From IMG/VR virus record IMGVR_UViG_3300025110_000013, positions 1-61,889 of that record: 61,889 nucleotides of DNA; one strand, written 5' to 3'. The translations under genes were made by a program, and so were the position numbers. Under the pieces are notes generated by a model. That model searched no databases. It had not been told where the DNA came from and saw only the letters and a list, made by a program, of their open reading frames with translations. Positions 51,799 to 58,099 of this stretch are shown here, one piece after another (within the stretch, counting starts at the first letter, position 1; every line of letters starts with the position of its first letter). This DNA comes from a virus (Duplodnaviria; Caudoviricetes).

Positions 51799-52470
51799 TT
51801 AGTTCCTCCCGTTGTGAGGACATTCTACCACTACGCAATGGTTTCGGCATAACCCACTTGGTTTGGGGTTCCATACGTCATTATCATACGCCAACTGCAT
51901 GGTTGTAAAATCAGAAAGCCATTTTTCCCACATATTTTCAGCATTATCTGAACTATATGTGTCTTTTATGAAGGCTTCCGCTATCACGAATAGTAAACCC
52001 GCCCTAACTTCTTCTACAAAAGGGAAGTGTTTAAAGGTAGCTAATGCCATTAATTCTAGCTGCCCCTTGTCTGCATACCTAGCAGACTTACCTGTCTTAT
52101 AGTCTACAACCCAAGCTATCTTCTTATCGACATCTAGTATAAGAAGATCTACTATTCCGCGCCACCATACGCCTCTCGCTTTAAATCCACAAGGGTCTAG
52201 GCTTTCAGTCAGCCCCATCTTATATTCGCAAAGCTTACTCCCTTCTTTCTCATTCAAGACATCCAATGCGGCCTTGGCGAATAGAAACTTCTTGGGTAAG
52301 TCCTTACTGTCGCGTACGTATTCTTCTGCGGCTTTGTGGAATTCGTTGCCGTAGTTCATCGCAAAACTAATAGGTTCTTTGTAATCTTTAGCTACCTTCA
52401 AGTGGTAAAACTGTTTAGGGCATTGCTCAAAAGACTTTATCCTACTGTATGACCAAGGGGATGCGCTCAT
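51799..52470 (-). CDS. PD-(D/E)XK exonuclease, Cas4/AddB-like with a 4-Cys cluster
   Basis: WSYSRIKSFEQCP, GIVDL, VVDYKTG, LCRNHC...CPHN. Confidence 0.85.
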   Translation of the reverse strand: MSASPWSYSRIKSFEQCPKQFYHLKVAKDYKEPISFAMNYGNEFHKAAEEYVRDSKDLPKKFLFAKAALDVLNEKEGSKLCEYKMGLTESLDPCGFKARGVWWRGIVDLLILDVDKKIAWVVDYKTGKSARYADKGQLELMALATFKHFPFVEEVRAGLLFVIAEAFIKDTYSSDNAENMWEKWLSDFTTMQLAYDNDVWNPKPSGLCRNHCVVVECPHNGRN

Positions 52471-52613
52471 ATGTGTATCTTATTCATAACAATTATGTAG
52501 TCTTGCGGAGGTATTTGTAGCTGACTACACACACGAAGCTGTTTTGGAGTCATCTTCTCCACCGCACTCCTCACCTGTCTCCGCCTCTTTTTATCGTGCA
52601 TCTCGTTAGTCAT
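52467..52613 (-). CDS. Small protein (48 aa, not in ORF track)
   Basis: MTNEMHDKKRRRQVRSAVEKMTPKQLRVCSQLQIPPQDYIIVMNKIHI; AAGGAG SD; overlaps both neighbours. Confidence 0.65.
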   Translation of the reverse strand: MTNEMHDKKRRRQVRSAVEKMTPKQLRVCSQLQIPPQDYIIVMNKIHI

Positions 52614-52855
52614 TATATCTCCTTACTTTCCGAGGGAGTTCTGCCCTTATTAAACGCTTCTATCTCAGCTTTATTAGGAATCCAGAATATGTTCTTCTCT
52701 AACCTAATCTCATGGATGGTCTTCACTATAGCGAAATCTATATTAGGAAAGTTCTTTACGTGCGTTTCTTTAGCTTCGTAAGCATCCTGTACTGAATCGT
52801 AATGCCCATCTATAAAAGGCGTCCCTAAAAATAATATGTCGTATTTACCGTTCAT
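52613..52855 (-). CDS. Hypothetical protein
   Basis: ATGA overlap with the PolA stop. Confidence 0.65.
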   Translation of the reverse strand: MNGKYDILFLGTPFIDGHYDSVQDAYEAKETHVKNFPNIDFAIVKTIHEIRLEKNIFWIPNKAEIEAFNKGRTPSESKEI

Positions 52856-54678
52856 TCACATTCTCCATAAGACCTTCCCACAAAAGCCTCGCAATCCAAA
52901 GGTAACCCTTCGGCCCAATCTGGAACCCAACGCATATACATCTCTATGTCTTGCTTCGCTTGTTCTACATCGTCCTCCTTGACGCAGCATACAATCGAGT
53001 CATGTACAGTCAGTGCTACACGATGTTTCTTTGATATCTTTAGCATCTGTTCTGCAATAATGCAACGGGCTAACGCTTGACACGCGTTCTCCACAAATTT
53101 CCCACCGTATATCTTGGCGCGTCCGTTCCTTCTTTTATATGTATACTCCATACCTTTAGAATCATTGACCCCCTTAAGATCGTCATACCGCATAAGTAAT
53201 CCAGAGGGAAGGCGCACTGCTGATAAATCACCAACCGGCTCCAGTACTTGAGGTACACCGATTGACTTCTCTTTACCTTTAGCTAACTCACGGATCATAA
53301 GCTGTGCTTCTTGCCACAAACCACTTATCTCTGCATTAGCTTCTCGATAAACCTGTATAACCCGCCGCGCTTCCTCGATGTCTATTTCAAATCCGAAAGT
53401 ACCCATCTGCGCTTGGAACTTAACCGCGCCCATGCCGTAACCACTGCCTAATATTGTGGTCTTACCAACAAACCGTTCGTCTTTAGTAACCTCTGACTCA
53501 TCTTTATTGTAGATACGGGAAGCCATCTTTACATAGACATCCTCTCCGTTGCGGAAAGAACTAACCAAATCCTCTTGCCCCGCCAACCATGCAAGTACTC
53601 TTGCCTCTATTTGAGCAGAGTCACAGTCAATCAAAACATAGCCGTCGGGAGCTATGATACTTCTCTTTAAGGTCTTACCATCAGGCCCACGACTAGGAAG
53701 GTTTTGTAAGTTAATCTTGTCATCACCACCCCATCGACCTGTATGGGCAGCGTAATATCTTACAGGCACAGGCAGTATGCCGCGTCTGGATATGTCGATA
53801 AATCGTTGGGTTCGGGTTTCTTCTAGGGTGCTTTTGTTACCAAGCCGCGCCGCTACTAAAGCTTGGATACTAATAGATGGATGTTCTTGCAGTGCTTTGA
53901 ACCCTTCATCTGTCTTAGCGAAAGCATACGTTTCTTTTCCAGTGGTAGGGCTTATCTTAGTAGGGGGAATAACGCCGTTCTTCTTTAGCAGTTCAGCAAA
54001 CTTATCGTTACTCATCAGGGATTCTTTACTAACCCCCGCCTCTATGAGTAGATCATCCTTTCTATCTCGTATCGCTATAAGGTGTTGCTCTAGCAGACCC
54101 ATATCCAAATCTAGTATGGGTTCTATAAACATACGAAGTGTAGTATCAATCACCTTAAGTTCTTGTCTGGGATAACCCGCCGCCATTATTGAAAACAATT
54201 TGTAGGTCAGTTCGACATCGTTAATACAGTAGTCGCCATACTTATCAAGGCTTACTTCGCTAAACTCTTCTCGACGCTTACCCATTGCATCGACTACTTC
54301 AGTACCCTTCTCACCAATATTATAACGCTGCGCTAATGCAGCTAGACTACCGCCAACCTCTACACCATGCAGACTTCTAGCCATACATAATGTATCGGCC
54401 CAAACCTTCGGGTGTATGTCGAACAGCCAAGACAGTATTGCGCCATCAAACATGGTGTTATGTGCAAGCACCATGCTGTTAGCCCAATCGAATTCATGTA
54501 GGTATTCTTTAGTTTGTTCAAACGTGCCGCTCGCCCACTCTGCGTACCCATCGTTTACTTTTATGCTAACGCCCACCACTTCAAAACGAGGGTCGCGTAC
54601 GTATTCTTCTGTAGTAAGTTTACTCAGTGAGAAGTCCTTACTGTAAAAGGTCTCAAAGTCTATTGTTATTAAGTCCAC
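52852..54678 (-). CDS. polA: DNA polymerase family A with 3'-5' exonuclease
   Basis: Exo DFET, HNTMFD, YCINDV; motif A DSAQIEAR; motif B RFVGKTTILGSGYG; motif C VHDS. Confidence 0.93.
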   Translation of the reverse strand: MDLITIDFETFYSKDFSLSKLTTEEYVRDPRFEVVGVSIKVNDGYAEWASGTFEQTKEYLHEFDWANSMVLAHNTMFDGAILSWLFDIHPKVWADTLCMARSLHGVEVGGSLAALAQRYNIGEKGTEVVDAMGKRREEFSEVSLDKYGDYCINDVELTYKLFSIMAAGYPRQELKVIDTTLRMFIEPILDLDMGLLEQHLIAIRDRKDDLLIEAGVSKESLMSNDKFAELLKKNGVIPPTKISPTTGKETYAFAKTDEGFKALQEHPSISIQALVAARLGNKSTLEETRTQRFIDISRRGILPVPVRYYAAHTGRWGGDDKINLQNLPSRGPDGKTLKRSIIAPDGYVLIDCDSAQIEARVLAWLAGQEDLVSSFRNGEDVYVKMASRIYNKDESEVTKDERFVGKTTILGSGYGMGAVKFQAQMGTFGFEIDIEEARRVIQVYREANAEISGLWQEAQLMIRELAKGKEKSIGVPQVLEPVGDLSAVRLPSGLLMRYDDLKGVNDSKGMEYTYKRRNGRAKIYGGKFVENACQALARCIIAEQMLKISKKHRVALTVHDSIVCCVKEDDVEQAKQDIEMYMRWVPDWAEGLPLDCEAFVGRSYGECE

Positions 54679-54705
54679 GTTATTAGTTCCAGTAGTATTT
54701 GCATT

Positions 54706-54867
54706 TTAAGATTTAGTGAGTACGATTTTTTCTCTGTGGAAACCCCTACGTATACCCACCGCTTTAGTCATACCAATAGGTACTTGTTTAATCTCCCCTC
54801 CTTTACTCAAGAATTCTGTAACTTTATCGTTAAGTTCTTTACTTTCTTCTGCCTTCGTTTTATTCAT
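54706..54867 (-). CDS. Small SutA-like RNA-polymerase-binding protein (53 aa)
   Basis: ELNDKVTEFLSKGGEIKQV resembles the SutA core (EEFLxRGGKVQEI). True ATG at 54867; the longer ORF merely runs through the array. Confidence 0.55.
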   Translation of the reverse strand: MNKTKAEESKELNDKVTEFLSKGGEIKQVPIGMTKAVGIRRGFHREKIVLTKS

Positions 54868-54872
54868 TTTTA

Positions 54873-55343
54873 ATAACCACACCTGCCAAACCACACACCA
54901 CCTTGACCCGCCGTAATCCACCTGATCCCAACCCGCCATACCTGCCAAACCCCAACCGAATCTACCGGACCTCTGCATAACTCAACTTGCCGCAACGCAC
55001 CTGACCTGCCTTACCGGAACCCAACAAAACTTAACGTAAACCACCTTAACTGAACATATCCTACCTGCCTTACCACACCCCATCTTGGCCCACCACAACC
55101 CATCTAAATAAACCACACCTGACCTGCCATACCGCATCGTGCCTTATCTCAACATACCCCGAGCCACCATACCTGCCTTACCTTACCTCGCCAAACCTAA
55201 CCTCGCCGCATCCAAACGCATCTGACCATGTCATAACTCGCCTTACCTGCCAAATCATGCCCCAGCCTAACCCACCAAAACCTTACAAATCCAAACCGAC
55301 CTGACCACACCTGCCAAACCAAACCGCATCCAGACCAAGCCAA
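54873..55343 (-). ncRNA. Non-coding pentamer-register array (GGCA + n x G-N-Y-N-N); candidate guide-RNA array
   Basis: GGCAGGT (plus-strand ACCTGCC) at 54881, 54940, 55004, 55063, 55122, 55171, 55245, 55309. Spacings 59, 64, 59, 59, 49, 74, 64 are all 5n+4. Of 80 pentamers, 74 start with G, 78 have a pyrimidine at position 3, and 40 are GGY. Confidence 0.85.
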
Positions 55344-55344
55344 T

Positions 55345-55845
55345 TTATTTTTTAAGAAACAAACTGATTGGTTCCAAGACATCCGATAACTCGGACAAGG
55401 CTTTGTATTTGTTTGTAAATGCCTCTAGCTCCTTCTTTGCGTTGTCAACTAACTGTTGTCTGCCTTCGGGATCTTTCAACATATCAAACGTGTTAAGCCA
55501 GATTCTTTGGGGCTTGCCGCCGCACTCAATCTTTGCTCGTTGAAACAAACGAATCTCTGTAGGTTCGATCTGATCCTCGTTTAACTTCTCAGTCACTACT
55601 ACTAAAGACCTTTTGATATTTTTCTCTGTTATCAATCGGAATTTATTACCCGCTATTTCGTCGTTCCATTCAAAGTCGTTATGCAAAACAGACTTTGGGC
55701 TACGAGCGTGTTCTACTAAAGAACCATCGGGGGCATAACCCCCGTGGCGTTTATTCAGAGCCTCTATTTCCTTTAGAGCAGCGTTCGCATCTGCCTTGAA
55801 AAAAGACCCCTTTCTCCATTTAACTTCGGTGTAAACAGGTTTCAT
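55345..55845 (-). CDS. Partner protein of the RAMP cassette (166 aa)
   Basis: LVEHARSPKSVLHNDFEWNDEIAG motif; ATGA overlap with the RAMP gene; the array starts 3 nt after its stop. Confidence 0.8.
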   Translation of the reverse strand: MKPVYTEVKWRKGSFFKADANAALKEIEALNKRHGGYAPDGSLVEHARSPKSVLHNDFEWNDEIAGNKFRLITEKNIKRSLVVVTEKLNEDQIEPTEIRLFQRAKIECGGKPQRIWLNTFDMLKDPEGRQQLVDNAKKELEAFTNKYKALSELSDVLEPISLFLKK

Positions 55846-56489
55846 GCTGCTGTTTCCGATTCAAAGTCTATGAAGGTTTCCTTCAGTTCAATTTGATGCT
55901 TGAACTCCCTGTCAACCTCAAACCGACCATACTCACCGCCCTTTTCTGGGCGCATTTCACCTAGTCCAACACCGAAACCGGCCCTTTGTATTAGATTTAA
56001 GATGGTATTTTGTGTCAGCGATTGAGAGTCAAACTCCATCCGAACGATCATCGACCAGTTACGAAACTCAGGACGATAACGCAAATCAGTAGAACCCATG
56101 CCTACCCGAACTATGTCTTCCCGCATCAGAGGGTCTTCTGATTCAAAAGCACACAGATTGTTGACCGTATCATCAGGAATAATGAACAGGGACTTTCTAA
56201 GTAAAGTCTTTTCAAGTCCGATGTCTTTGTGAGCAGCATTGATAAAACACCTTTTCAATCCCCCTGCCGGAAACCCAAAGCGTCCATCCTCACAAACATA
56301 AGCAGCATCCCTAAACTCTTGCTCTGGGTCTCTGACATCTCGGTTCTTCACCTTCACCCCTTGGTGCTTGTCCTTCATCATCTTTATTGCTTTCATACTC
56401 CACTTATGCTCGATCAAAGCAGAGATCCCCTTGATGCGCGTGGTCAAAATCGACTGCTGCATCTCTTCAAGTTGTATTACGTTACTCAT
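55842..56489 (-). CDS. Stand-alone RAMP/Cas7-like RNA-binding protein (215 aa)
   Basis: N-terminal strand RIKGISALIEH; FPAGGLKRCF (cf. RAMP PgSslKG); YRPEF..W; C-terminal Gly-rich loop GFGVGLGEMRPEKGGEYGRFEV; AGGA SD before the ATG at 56489. Confidence 0.8.
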   Translation of the reverse strand: MSNVIQLEEMQQSILTTRIKGISALIEHKWSMKAIKMMKDKHQGVKVKNRDVRDPEQEFRDAAYVCEDGRFGFPAGGLKRCFINAAHKDIGLEKTLLRKSLFIIPDDTVNNLCAFESEDPLMREDIVRVGMGSTDLRYRPEFRNWSMIVRMEFDSQSLTQNTILNLIQRAGFGVGLGEMRPEKGGEYGRFEVDREFKHQIELKETFIDFESETAA

Positions 56490-56521
56490 TCTATCTTCCT
56501 TAGCGGCTATGCCGCGCTTTT

Positions 56522-56956
56522 TTAGTTTAGAAAGTTTCCTTTCTCTAGTCGTTTGATTTCTGCGTCTATATAAAACTTGATCTTCTTGGCATCCCGAAGT
56601 TTGTCGCTGTGCGAAGCGATGCCGTACCGATAGCATGATCTGAACACCTCACCGATCTGTGCGTTCATATCTCTATGTGAGATCAAGTCCTGTAATTCTT
56701 TAGCCCCCTTTGGAAGTTCATAGTAAGCCGCGGTGCTACCGTCCGATAAGGTCTTATCAGGAAGTTCCCAACTCAACCCCGTACCTGCTGGAGGGTGACC
56801 AACAGCAACATTATTGTCACCCGTTGTAATGTCACCACGCGCACTTCTTACTTTGTATACATAAGAAGCTGACACTCCAACCCGCGCCGCTATTTCTTTG
56901 TTAGATTTCTTAGGAGATCGGATTAATGCCTTTGCTATTTTCTCGTACTTATTCAA
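56522..56956 (-). CDS. HTH + DUF3310-like protein (probable TTG start at 56956)
   Basis: HTH SNKEIAARVGVSASYVYKVR; C-terminal YYELP...GEVFRSCYRYG...DAKKIKFY. Confidence 0.65.
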   Translation of the reverse strand: MNKYEKIAKALIRSPKKSNKEIAARVGVSASYVYKVRSARGDITTGDNNVAVGHPPAGTGLSWELPDKTLSDGSTAAYYELPKGAKELQDLISHRDMNAQIGEVFRSCYRYGIASHSDKLRDAKKIKFYIDAEIKRLEKGNFLN

Positions 56957-57269
56957 AATCAAGCTCCAGTTGTTTATCGTTTGCATCGGATGGGTTAAGA
57001 ATGTCTTGGATACTGTGCATATTCTTCTCGTTAACGATTAACGCTATGCCTTTTTGTTTCTCAATATCTTCTAGGTTTATTTGTTGGAGGGGGGTAGGAG
57101 TGTTCTTACCCGCTTTACATTCGATGCCGAAGAACTTGCCTTGGTAACATCCTACTATGTCTGGCACGCCGCTACGTCCGTACCCGCCTGTCACTGGGTA
57201 GAAGTAGTAAGCACCAAGGGCGCGTAGCTGCTTGACTACAACCTTTTTTACTTTAGCTTCGGGAGTCAT
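56949..57269 (-). CDS. VRR-NUC domain nuclease (Holliday-junction resolvase-like)
   Basis: TPEAKVK, GVPD, GIECKA, PTPLQ. Confidence 0.88.
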   Translation of the reverse strand: MTPEAKVKKVVVKQLRALGAYYFYPVTGGYGRSGVPDIVGCYQGKFFGIECKAGKNTPTPLQQINLEDIEKQKGIALIVNEKNMHSIQDILNPSDANDKQLELDFE

Positions 57270-57429
57270 CCTTTTTCCTTCTTACCTTTTTTTCGGGTTC
57301 TTTGTTCGCTATGGAATGGTTGGCCGTTAAGGTCTTTTCGACGCGAATCAACGTATCTTTTATTTCCGTTAGCGTAGACATCACCTCCATAAAGTCCTGT
57401 TCTTCTAATTCTATTATTACTTTTGCCAT
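57253..57429 (-). CDS. Hypothetical protein (58 aa; probable start 57429)
   Basis: AAGG SD; MAKVIIELEEQ... Confidence 0.6.
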   Translation of the reverse strand: MAKVIIELEEQDFMEVMSTLTEIKDTLIRVEKTLTANHSIANKEPEKKVRRKKDDSRS

Positions 57430-57456
57430 AAATACCTTGCAGAAACTGGTATCAAA

Positions 57457-57476
57457 ATTTGTGTAATTACACAAAT
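57457..57476. promoter_or_regulatory. Perfect 20-bp palindrome ATTTGTGTAATTACACAAAT (operator-like)
   Basis: Self-complementary; best copy of the 7-member family; upstream of the replication operon. Confidence 0.7.
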
Positions 57477-57486
57477 CTTTAGTGTT

Positions 57487-57740
57487 AAAAAAGAGGGGCA
57501 GGGCAGTCACGTACTAGCCGACTCCGAGCGTGCGGTTGAGGCTCCCCATCTCTGAAGAGCCGTACCCCTAAAGCTACATCGTGATAGTCGATGCGATTGG
57601 CCTAATGAACCTCATTAGCAGAGGCGTGTGGAGGCACTTCATCACATCCATTCTTTAACCTTGTACGGCACGTAAACATGAACAAACGCGGTACGAGGCG
57701 GAAATCCGTCGGACGCTATCACTCCCCCGACTTCCCTACC
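57487..57740 (-). ncRNA. Candidate ~250-nt multi-stem structured RNA ending in a U-tract
   Basis: 57729-57740 pairs with 57497-57508; inner stems at 57716-22/57581-87, 57602-08/57612-18, 57659-66/57691-98 and 57540-47/57554-61; no credible ORF. Confidence 0.55.
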
Positions 57741-57760
57741 ACACAATCAAATTATGTACT

Positions 57761-58099
57761 CTATGGGAGTATCCAAAAACTATCGATGCTCCCCTCGATA
57801 TCTGGTTCGTAGGCGGTAAACCTAGATCCTACATCCTTGACCTGTGGCTCCCTTGTCGGGTGATTATCAAGATGGCATGGTTCCCAATTCTTGAGAACGG
57901 CTACCTTGCCTTTCACCCACTCAGGCAACGTATTGAATGAATCATACAACCCATCAATATTCGAGTCAACACAATCCATACCAACACACGTTATTTCGTA
58001 CTTACCTGTATCAGGCATTTCCATTACTAGGTAATGTGTATCTTTCCCTATTAAGGTCTTACCTTCTGTTACTTCTTCTTTGTTGTTATTCGTATACAT
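57761..58099 (-). CDS. Hypothetical protein
   Basis: LPEWVKGKVAVL motif; overlaps the upstream stop. Confidence 0.65.
   Translation of the reverse strand: MYTNNNKEEVTEGKTLIGKDTHYLVMEMPDTGKYEITCVGMDCVDSNIDGLYDSFNTLPEWVKGKVAVLKNWEPCHLDNHPTREPQVKDVGSRFTAYEPDIEGSIDSFWILP

Follow-up and report, generated by a model that had tools for sequence, protein, structure and literature searches.

The stretch of DNA analysed here (the window) is a complete virus record of 61,889 nt (IMG/VR record IMGVR_UViG_3300025110_000013; Caudoviricetes). Its minus strand carries replication genes, coding for a family A DNA polymerase, an SNF2 helicase, a primase-helicase, a gp2.5-like single-stranded DNA-binding protein and exonucleases. 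Inside this replication module, between a gene for a protein of 166 amino acids (55345-55845) and one for a protein of 55 amino acids (54706-54873), is seated an array of 5-nt repeats arranged in seven abutting units, U1 to U7. Together with a vipr gene and a vap-like gene, the array forms a locus (54881-56489, minus strand) that we identify from its sequence as a VIPR (Viral Interference Programmable Repeat) system (Table 1). Very probably, the guide specified by its second unit, U2, is directed at an integrative element, resident or competing, through the gene for its integrase.

Table 1. Features of the VIPR locus of the window, with positions in the 61,889-nt record
Feature	Position	Strand	Basis or remark
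Whole VIPR guide array, seven units	54881..55315	-	pentamer parsing, autocorrelation, relatives
U1	55315..55252	-	
U2	55251..55178	-	GGCA + 14 pentamers
U3	55177..55129	-	
U4	55128..55070	-	
U5	55069..55011	-	
U6	55010..54947	-	
U7	54946..54888	-	
Closing GGCAGGT	54887..54881	-	
Short leader, vap-like stop to first GGCAGGT	55316..55344	-	
vap-like accessory gene, 166 aa, PHROG 15946	55345..55845	-	
vipr gene, 215 aa + stop, PHROG 4652	55842..56489	-	minimal RAMP protein, SUSP1 Vipr homologue

VIPR has been described in three 2026 preprints (bioRxiv 10.64898/2026.04.26.720920, 10.64898/2026.04.26.720927 and 10.64898/2026.10.15.759431). A characterised Vipr is a minimal RAMP protein with an RRM core, a G-loop and a thumb. 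According to these texts, Vipr protomers attach to vrRNAs at the GGY of their YNNGG repeats and present the NN dinucleotides, which pair with DNA, one target base per repeat being skipped, mostly at the wobble position (the 1 nt skip rule; 10.64898/2026.04.26.720920 and 10.64898/2026.04.26.720927). In the same material, vrRNAs have 9-16 pentamer repeats in which a conserved GGY alternates with a hypervariable NN, and the natural targets are rival phages and satellites.

The vipr gene lies upstream of the vap-like gene on the minus strand. Its open frame extends to 56636, but as the homologues are 200-215 amino acids long, the likely start is at 56489. A profile of the vipr family matched the PDB entry 36pp_D, "SUSP1 Vipr protein" (E 1.2e-14, residues 18-197), and the single sequence from the window also matched SUSP1 Vipr (E 4.2e-7). 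The AlphaFold2 model of the window protein (pLDDT 86.5) had its best Foldseek matches among the Csm3/Cas7 RAMPs, which are backbone subunits of type III CRISPR systems (E around 1e-6). It is this homology of the adjoining gene to a solved Vipr, together with the Cas7/Csm3-like predicted fold, that leads us to assign the locus to VIPR. The family is marked by a glycine-rich stretch, GFGVGLGE.RPEKGG, with invariant G171, G175, R180, P181 and G188; the window protein belongs to no Pfam family, and its 153 matches among cultured phages are all below 60% identity. At the DNA level, a blastn search with positions 52000-58000 against cultured phages returned zero matches.

Viral contigs were scanned for three copies of GGCAGGT at unit spacing, which gave 121 stretches; together with loci collected earlier, 32 loci with true 5-periodic arrays were obtained. 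A vap-like gene, coding for 150-176 amino acids, lies directly beside the array, before or after it and on the same strand, in 25 of the 32 loci, and a vipr homologue (about 200-260 amino acids) lies beside the array on the same strand in 21. The vap-like protein has a confidently predicted fold but no Pfam family, and Foldseek gave no match in the PDB at E <=0.001, with weak winged-helix rows only. Among cultured phages its homologues are confined to Gordonia phages, and none is detectable in Escherichia phages. The array follows the vap-like gene in the window, is placed between vipr and vap in other loci (such as L087, L097 and L104), and in one contig flanks the vap-like gene on both sides (L091:418-620 and 1402-1700). 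Thus, the order of vipr, vap-like gene and array is variable. In a further relative, with a polymerase 69% identical to that of the window, a 5-periodic G-rich array without GGCAGGT and with a GGCGGTC-like boundary lies upstream of the polymerase region (L052:1780-2085). On the other side of the window array, the 55-amino acid open reading frame (ORF) that directly follows it (54706-54873, minus strand) matches the RNA polymerase-binding domain of SutA (PF20661, E 2e-9). This SutA-like ORF is placed between the array and the DNA polymerase gene, and the last GGCAGGTGTGG of the array sits at its expected ribosome-binding site.

The array stretch is C-rich on the strand as deposited and G/T-rich on the minus strand, with a strong G/C skew. 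Autocorrelation over 54870-55350 was 0.41-0.47 at lags 5 to 25, as against 0.21-0.26 at lags 2, 3, 7 and 8. Each of the seven units starts with GGCAGGT, that is, GGCA followed by 9-14 pentamers of the form G-N-Y-N-N. The unit lengths, 64, 74, 49, 59, 59, 64 and 59 nt for U1 to U7, all equal 5k-1 (with a mode of 11 pentamers per unit), so that the pentamer register shifts by one base at each boundary. Of the 80 scaffold triplets in the window, 40 are canonical GGY, while G is first in 74 and Y third in 78. In 120 unique units, from loci that had passed a filter less strict than the one leaving 32, the pentamers begin with G in 94% of cases, have G second in 82% and T or C third in 97%, and positions 4-5 are near uniform, with all 16 dinucleotides in use. 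The last pentamer of a unit is A/T-biased (AA, TT or AT in 66 of 117 units) and is probably part of the boundary between units, not of the guide. GGCA is the sole separator in the window: its units have no invariable structured 3' tail of about 40 nt and no pseudoknot, which sets the locus outside the SUSP1-type architecture, yet inside VIPR. Tandem Repeats Finder did not report the array, and an Rfam scan gave just two chance-level rows. A pentapeptide-repeat ORF is excluded by stop codons and by unit lengths (49-74 nt) that are not multiples of 3. A CRISPR array, which would have direct repeats of about 23-50 nt, spacers and cas genes, was also rejected: GGCAGGT is the sole constant element, the would-be spacers are themselves 5-nt periodic, and the 18 proteins encoded nearby include no member of a cas family. 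Two units, U4 and U7, share the terminal NN run GG AA GG GT (G-[KN]-G-V), preceded by GG GT in U4 and by GG AC in U7, and these two may address variants of one glycine-rich protein motif.

On the minus strand U2 reads GGCA GGTAA GGCGA GTTAT GACAT GGTCA GATGC GTTTG GATGC GGCGA GGTTA GGTTT GGCGA GGTAA GGTAA, with nine GGY scaffolds out of 14 and five of the form G[T/A]Y. A preliminary description of the window had extracted from it the NN string AA GA AT AT CA GC TG GC GA TA TT GA AA AA, which we find to be letter-exact on the minus strand at 55178-55251, and had noticed that this string, taken as codon positions 1-2, permits K-E-M-M-Q-A-W-A-D-Y-L-D. It does; NN 1-13 correspond to the sense strand of K-E-M-M-Q-A-W-A-D-Y-L-[DE]-[KN]. 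The C-terminal motif of P4-type integrases, which that description had named, is real: the P4 integrase ends ...ERRLMMQWWADYLDM..., with RRLMMQWWADYLD at its C-terminus. A database search with the gapped pattern, which the same description had proposed, yielded matches in integrase ORFs with the gap on codon position 3.

The pattern of 12 NN dinucleotides (24 specified bases) had 11 exact matches in prokaryote genome contigs (596 Gb, one genome per species), for which our own arithmetic (2 x 596e9 / 4^24) gives a chance expectation of about 0.004. Every one of them is in frame and lies 17-29 codons ahead of the stop, in frames of 289-445 codons. With 13 NN, nine exact matches were found in metagenome contigs, again all in frame and in the same motif, then followed by K or N. 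The 20 exact matches lie 15-29 codons from the integrase C-terminus and read RKEMMQAWADYL[DE]; written with its gaps, the 38-nt site addressed by the 13 dinucleotides is AAnGAnATnATnCAnGCnTGnGCnGAnTAnTTnGAnAA. In 20 of 20 the NN fall on codon positions 1-2, and the skipped base is the synonymous, or wobble, position, as had been supposed. The skipped base varies at nine of the 12 codons, the invariant three being ATG, ATG and TGG, and the 20 matches represent 18 different sequences of 36 nt. With 20 exact in-frame matches against an expectation far below 1, the agreement goes far beyond chance. The NN of U2 are thus identical to codon positions 1-2 of an integrase coding strand.

The identity of the targets was assessed with Pfam for the 11 genome ORFs. 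Phage_int_M and Phage_integrase were present in all of them and Arm-DNA-bind_3 in nine (eight above the cut-off and one at 26.6 vs 27 bits), the other two ORFs being cut by contig ends. Five of the nine metagenome ORFs align over their full length with integrases confirmed in this way. The 11 genome ORFs are homologous to P4 int (35.9% identity, E 4e-55), and U2 matches P4 int itself at 19 of 26 positions. The motif, (R)KEMMQAWADYL[DE][KN], is found just after the catalytic tyrosine in a subfamily of P4-type tyrosine integrases. The integrase domains PF00589 and PF13356 have no match anywhere in the 61,889-nt record, and no array unit fits its own genome more closely than shuffled guides. The target is therefore non-self, as the preliminary description had it.

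The one-skip rule was tested on U2 alone, by sequence statistics, using 80 integrase loci picked from viral contigs by protein similarity, with halves of the motif itself as the locator peptides. U2 reached at least 21/26 in 19 of the 80 loci with a skip of 1 and in none with skips of 0, 2 or 3. When 100 order-shuffled U2 guides were run on the same loci, the maximum was 19, and none reached 21/26. That a guide skips one base per dinucleotide, as first proposed for U2 from its letters, thus agrees with the published 1 nt skip rule. Allowing up to two mismatches, the U2 pattern was found at 12 places in 11 of 401 genomes sampled from a class to which one of the hit genomes belongs (without that centre genome, 11 places in 10 of 400), and the same pattern read backwards had 0 matches in the 401 genomes. 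All 12 places hold codons for MMQ[A/D]WADY[L/F], with variable flanking codons (in terms of the matched letters only).

The published mechanism, in which filaments assemble on the scaffold triplets, pairing is gapped and transcription is silenced, suggests how such a locus could act. The array would be transcribed together with the vipr and vap-like genes, and the transcript processed into vrRNAs of unit length; each G-N-Y scaffold would then hold one Vipr protomer, which would present the next NN, and the dinucleotides would pair with one DNA strand, every third base being skipped. As the NN string of U2 has the sense of the integrase mRNA, U2 must pair with the template DNA strand and not with the mRNA, and its strand sense thus appears to fit DNA targeting. 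During infection, the U2 complex would occupy the integrase gene of a satellite, island or prophage and block its transcription, so that excision or integration would be blocked. Silent mutations could give the target no escape, since it is at the wobble positions that bases are skipped. Since the exact match runs through all five G[T/A]Y scaffolds of U2, these scaffolds are presumably in register and usable in this clade.

Some indication of expression may come from the assembled contigs of four RNA-library runs, in which most of the array is uncovered. Run X3 yielded a 96-nt contig lying on U1 (55241-55312), with a depth of 474 compared with 2 for the vap contig, and in run X2 a contig of depth 37 shares 55190-55220, the 31-nt W-A-D-Y-L core of U2, within different flanking pentamers; such contigs show neither level nor strand. 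Neighbouring genes in the two runs have depths of 2-4. These contigs hint weakly that small RNAs are abundant and that the W-A-D-Y-L site has a variant guide.

Several observations weigh against U2 acting on an integrase gene in the way proposed. The 14th NN of U2 (AA) matches none of the 20 targets. The exact 12-NN pattern has zero matches in 2.9 million viral contigs, and the integrases in viral contigs reach at best 22/26, none being exact. The exact matches span many lineages, among them Cellvibrio, Gilvimarinus, Arsukibacterium, Methylobacillus and metagenome-assembled genomes of Klebsiella and Bdellovibrionales, which cannot all be hosts of this phage. No more than half of the window scaffolds are GGY, while in SUSP1, according to the accessible text, silencing is lost when GGY is perturbed. 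A promoter scan found no sigma-70-like promoter on the minus strand ahead of the array. Units U1 and U3-U7 have no match above shuffled guides within 3-5 kb of 20 target integrases, and the exact gapped patterns of U1 and U7 have 0 matches each in viral contigs. By tblastn, none of 79 ORFs from 10 target loci matches the window at E <=1e-3. Finally, the case that U2 acts at all, through RNA processing, Vipr binding and repression, is a statistical one drawn from sequence.

Which kind of element carries the target is a separate question. Among the genes next to the exact-match integrases are those for AlpA, PriCT_2/Toprim primases, DUF3987, AAA_25, Sir2, a D12 methylase and one ClpP-capsid fusion, a content like that of islands or satellites. 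P4-like satellites and small islands typically carry AlpA, PriCT_2/Toprim primase and DUF3987. The target element may be a satellite or prophage of the phage's host, which binding would silence. Possibly, though we find it rather doubtful, the match is functional but the targets are resident temperate prophages or generic islands and not a satellite that parasitises this phage, in which case the guide might lock such elements into the chromosome or prevent integration by a co-infecting temperate rival. Integrases of this P4-type family occur in 250 phage records and at the ends of many viral contigs of 40-55 kb, the ClpP-capsid fusion gene lies at one exact-match locus, and none of the 10 exact-match loci examined has a protein in common with this phage; moreover, P. 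fulva vrRNAs mostly target resident prophages, as stated in the first VIPR preprint (10.64898/2026.04.26.720920). However, AlpA, PriCT_2/Toprim and DUF3987, a satellite- or island-like content, lie beside several of the exact-match integrases, and the integrases of viral contigs do not exceed 22/26.

It is quite improbable that U2 is a relic no longer loaded, or a decoy that misleads the Vipr of a rival. Five of its 14 scaffolds are non-GGY, it is absent from the closest relatives and from the 117 units screened (see below), and solo vrRNAs that satellites carry and that divert VIPR towards decoys have been published. Nevertheless, U2 stands in an array beside intact vipr and vap-like genes, and all 13 of its informative NN, including those on non-GGY scaffolds, are intact when compared with nine independent targets, which would not be expected of a decaying unit. 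In addition, the RNA-library contig of a second sample has the same 31-nt core in another unit context. We give virtually no credence to the array being no guide at all but a G/U-rich protein-binding or structural element (a TRAP-like ring sponge, two-quartet G-quadruplexes or a replication origin) with the NN as spacers void of meaning and the integrase reading a pareidolia: the 5-nt period, the modal 11 pentamers, the G/C skew and the position in the replication module would suit it, and the motif was recognised after the fact, but there are 20 exact in-frame matches where far fewer than one is expected, the backward, shuffled and other-skip controls are zero, the neighbouring protein is homologous to a solved Vipr, and U1 is identical, NN included, in relatives with differing flanking genes. 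The TRAP-like sponge, G-quadruplex repeats, a Rho- or Shine-Dalgarno-like decoy, an array of origin or primase sites and telomere-like synthesis had each been considered, and were dropped when Vipr was identified.

Returning to U2 as a guide against an integrase gene, we screened 117 collected units against integrase loci. A unit of the relative L001 (L001:3408-3466, present also in L173) reads V-K-[DE]-P-T-G-R-A-Y-[KN], and its target, VKDP[NT]GRAYN, contains the catalytic tyrosine and lies 18 codons upstream of the U2 site. This unit reaches 19/20 in two loci, L211 and L217, and at 40 places among 82 further integrase loci, among them Stenotrophomonas phage S1, compared with a maximum of 15 for shuffled guides. 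A unit of L150 and L160 fits the motif [NR]IPAxRMKM, read in codon register on the other strand, with 16/18 in 20 of 80 loci, and its best site is the same codon in 66 of the 80. Judged by these matches, integrase targeting is recurrent in the marine VIPR clade, with three phages addressing three motifs, IPAxRMKM, the catalytic-tyrosine GRAYN and the C-terminal MMQAWADYL.

An array occupies the same place in L004 (L004:3428-3798) and L001 (L001:3408-3770), whose polymerases are 99% and 93% identical, respectively, to that of the window. From the poly-A run on, the leader is identical in both relatives, one base differing in L004 just past the stop codon. U1 is letter-identical in all three phages; U3 and U6 are common to the window and L004, as is U7 with one base changed; and other units are wholly different. 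U2 was found in the window only among the collected arrays, being absent from the 99% and 93% relatives and from the 117 screened units. Units could not be copied straight from a target, because the scaffold triplets must be interleaved. It is conceivable, but unlikely, that the marine VIPR clade keeps a fast-turning guide library against invariant P4-type integrase motifs by means of a dedicated writing step for codon positions 1-2. Whole units set apart phages whose polymerases are 99% identical, and yet any units in common are the same letter for letter; this leaves room for such a step, which would write positions 1-2 of the codons of a rival gene into G-N-Y-spaced units and would be adaptation-like, going beyond recombination of existing arrays.

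The system type, the code, the wobble argument and recombinase targeting are already published. The closest precedent, in the accessible text of the October 2026 preprint (10.64898/2026.10.15.759431), is SUSP1 vrRNA4, which silences the serine recombinase of an E. coli satellite through codon positions 1-2. The window has in common with SUSP1 VIPR (type II) a Vipr RAMP beside an accessory gene and GGY/NN pentamer arrays, a one-base skip on the wobble position, and a guide against the recombinase gene of an integrated rival from which silent escape is impossible. In contrast, its Vipr is only distantly related, its units abut with GGCA only (SUSP1 units have an invariable 3' tail with a pseudoknot, of about 40 nt), its scaffolds are relaxed to G-N-Y, its target is a tyrosine (P4-type) integrase and not a recombinase with a catalytic serine, and its footprint is 38 nt, compared with 18 bp for vrRNA4, the SUSP1 particulars being those in the accessible preprint text. 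Architectures beyond that of SUSP1 exist, including "staggered" arrays with a 1-nt overlap, according to the first VIPR preprint (10.64898/2026.04.26.720920). In the window array, too, units succeed one another with no spacer element, and their length of 5k-1 nt makes the register slip by one base at each boundary; going by the figure legend for the published arrays (fig. S18), we infer that the window array may have the staggered architecture.

The closest cultured homologues are in the Gordonia phages Ecliptus, ODay, UmaThurman and Pipp (38-39% identity for Vipr and 29% for the vap-like protein). In Ecliptus, a gap of about 260 nt (L304:769-1029) between the vipr homologue (gene 19) and the vap-like gene (gene 20) is full of GGY/NN pentamers with GGCAGG boundaries. 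These modules differ in having an actinobacterial host and in belonging to phages unrelated to that of the window, and their genes are annotated as hypothetical; Ecliptus might be used to study this VIPR type in the laboratory. A more distant likeness is to Class 1 CRISPR-Cas. The predicted fold of Vipr matches Csm3/Cas7, there is one protomer per short RNA segment with periodic interruption of pairing (a comparison drawn in the accessible text of the VIPR preprints), and the content of the window array turns over cassette by cassette between near-identical phages. However, the window locus is without long direct repeats or other cas genes, and its period is 5 nt, with 2 nt paired and a target register of 3, whereas that of CRISPR is 6 nt, with 5 paired and a register of 6.

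We found no report in the literature of a P4-type tyrosine integrase as the target of a vrRNA, although the target tables of the preprints (data S3) may bear on this; a literature search returned the VIPR preprints and, beyond them, one paper on genomic language models. The word "integrase" is absent from the accessible text of the first VIPR preprint and from one of its supplementary files; in that of the competition preprint (10.64898/2026.10.15.759431), "tyrosine" has 0 and "integrase" 8 occurrences, and none of the passages listed is about a tyrosine-integrase target.

Natural VIPR targets had previously been worked out for phages of E. coli and Pseudomonas, and an uncultured marine phage is now seen to carry the same code, with guide and target fully specified (13 dinucleotides against a 38-nt site). 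That the exact match of U2 runs across five non-GGY scaffolds suggests that Vipr tolerates G-N-Y, which would widen the grammar by which vrRNAs are searched for. Moreover, a single guide that matches 18 synonymous versions of its target, in many lineages, illustrates how a code with gaps may be directed to a motif of the protein and not to a DNA sequence.

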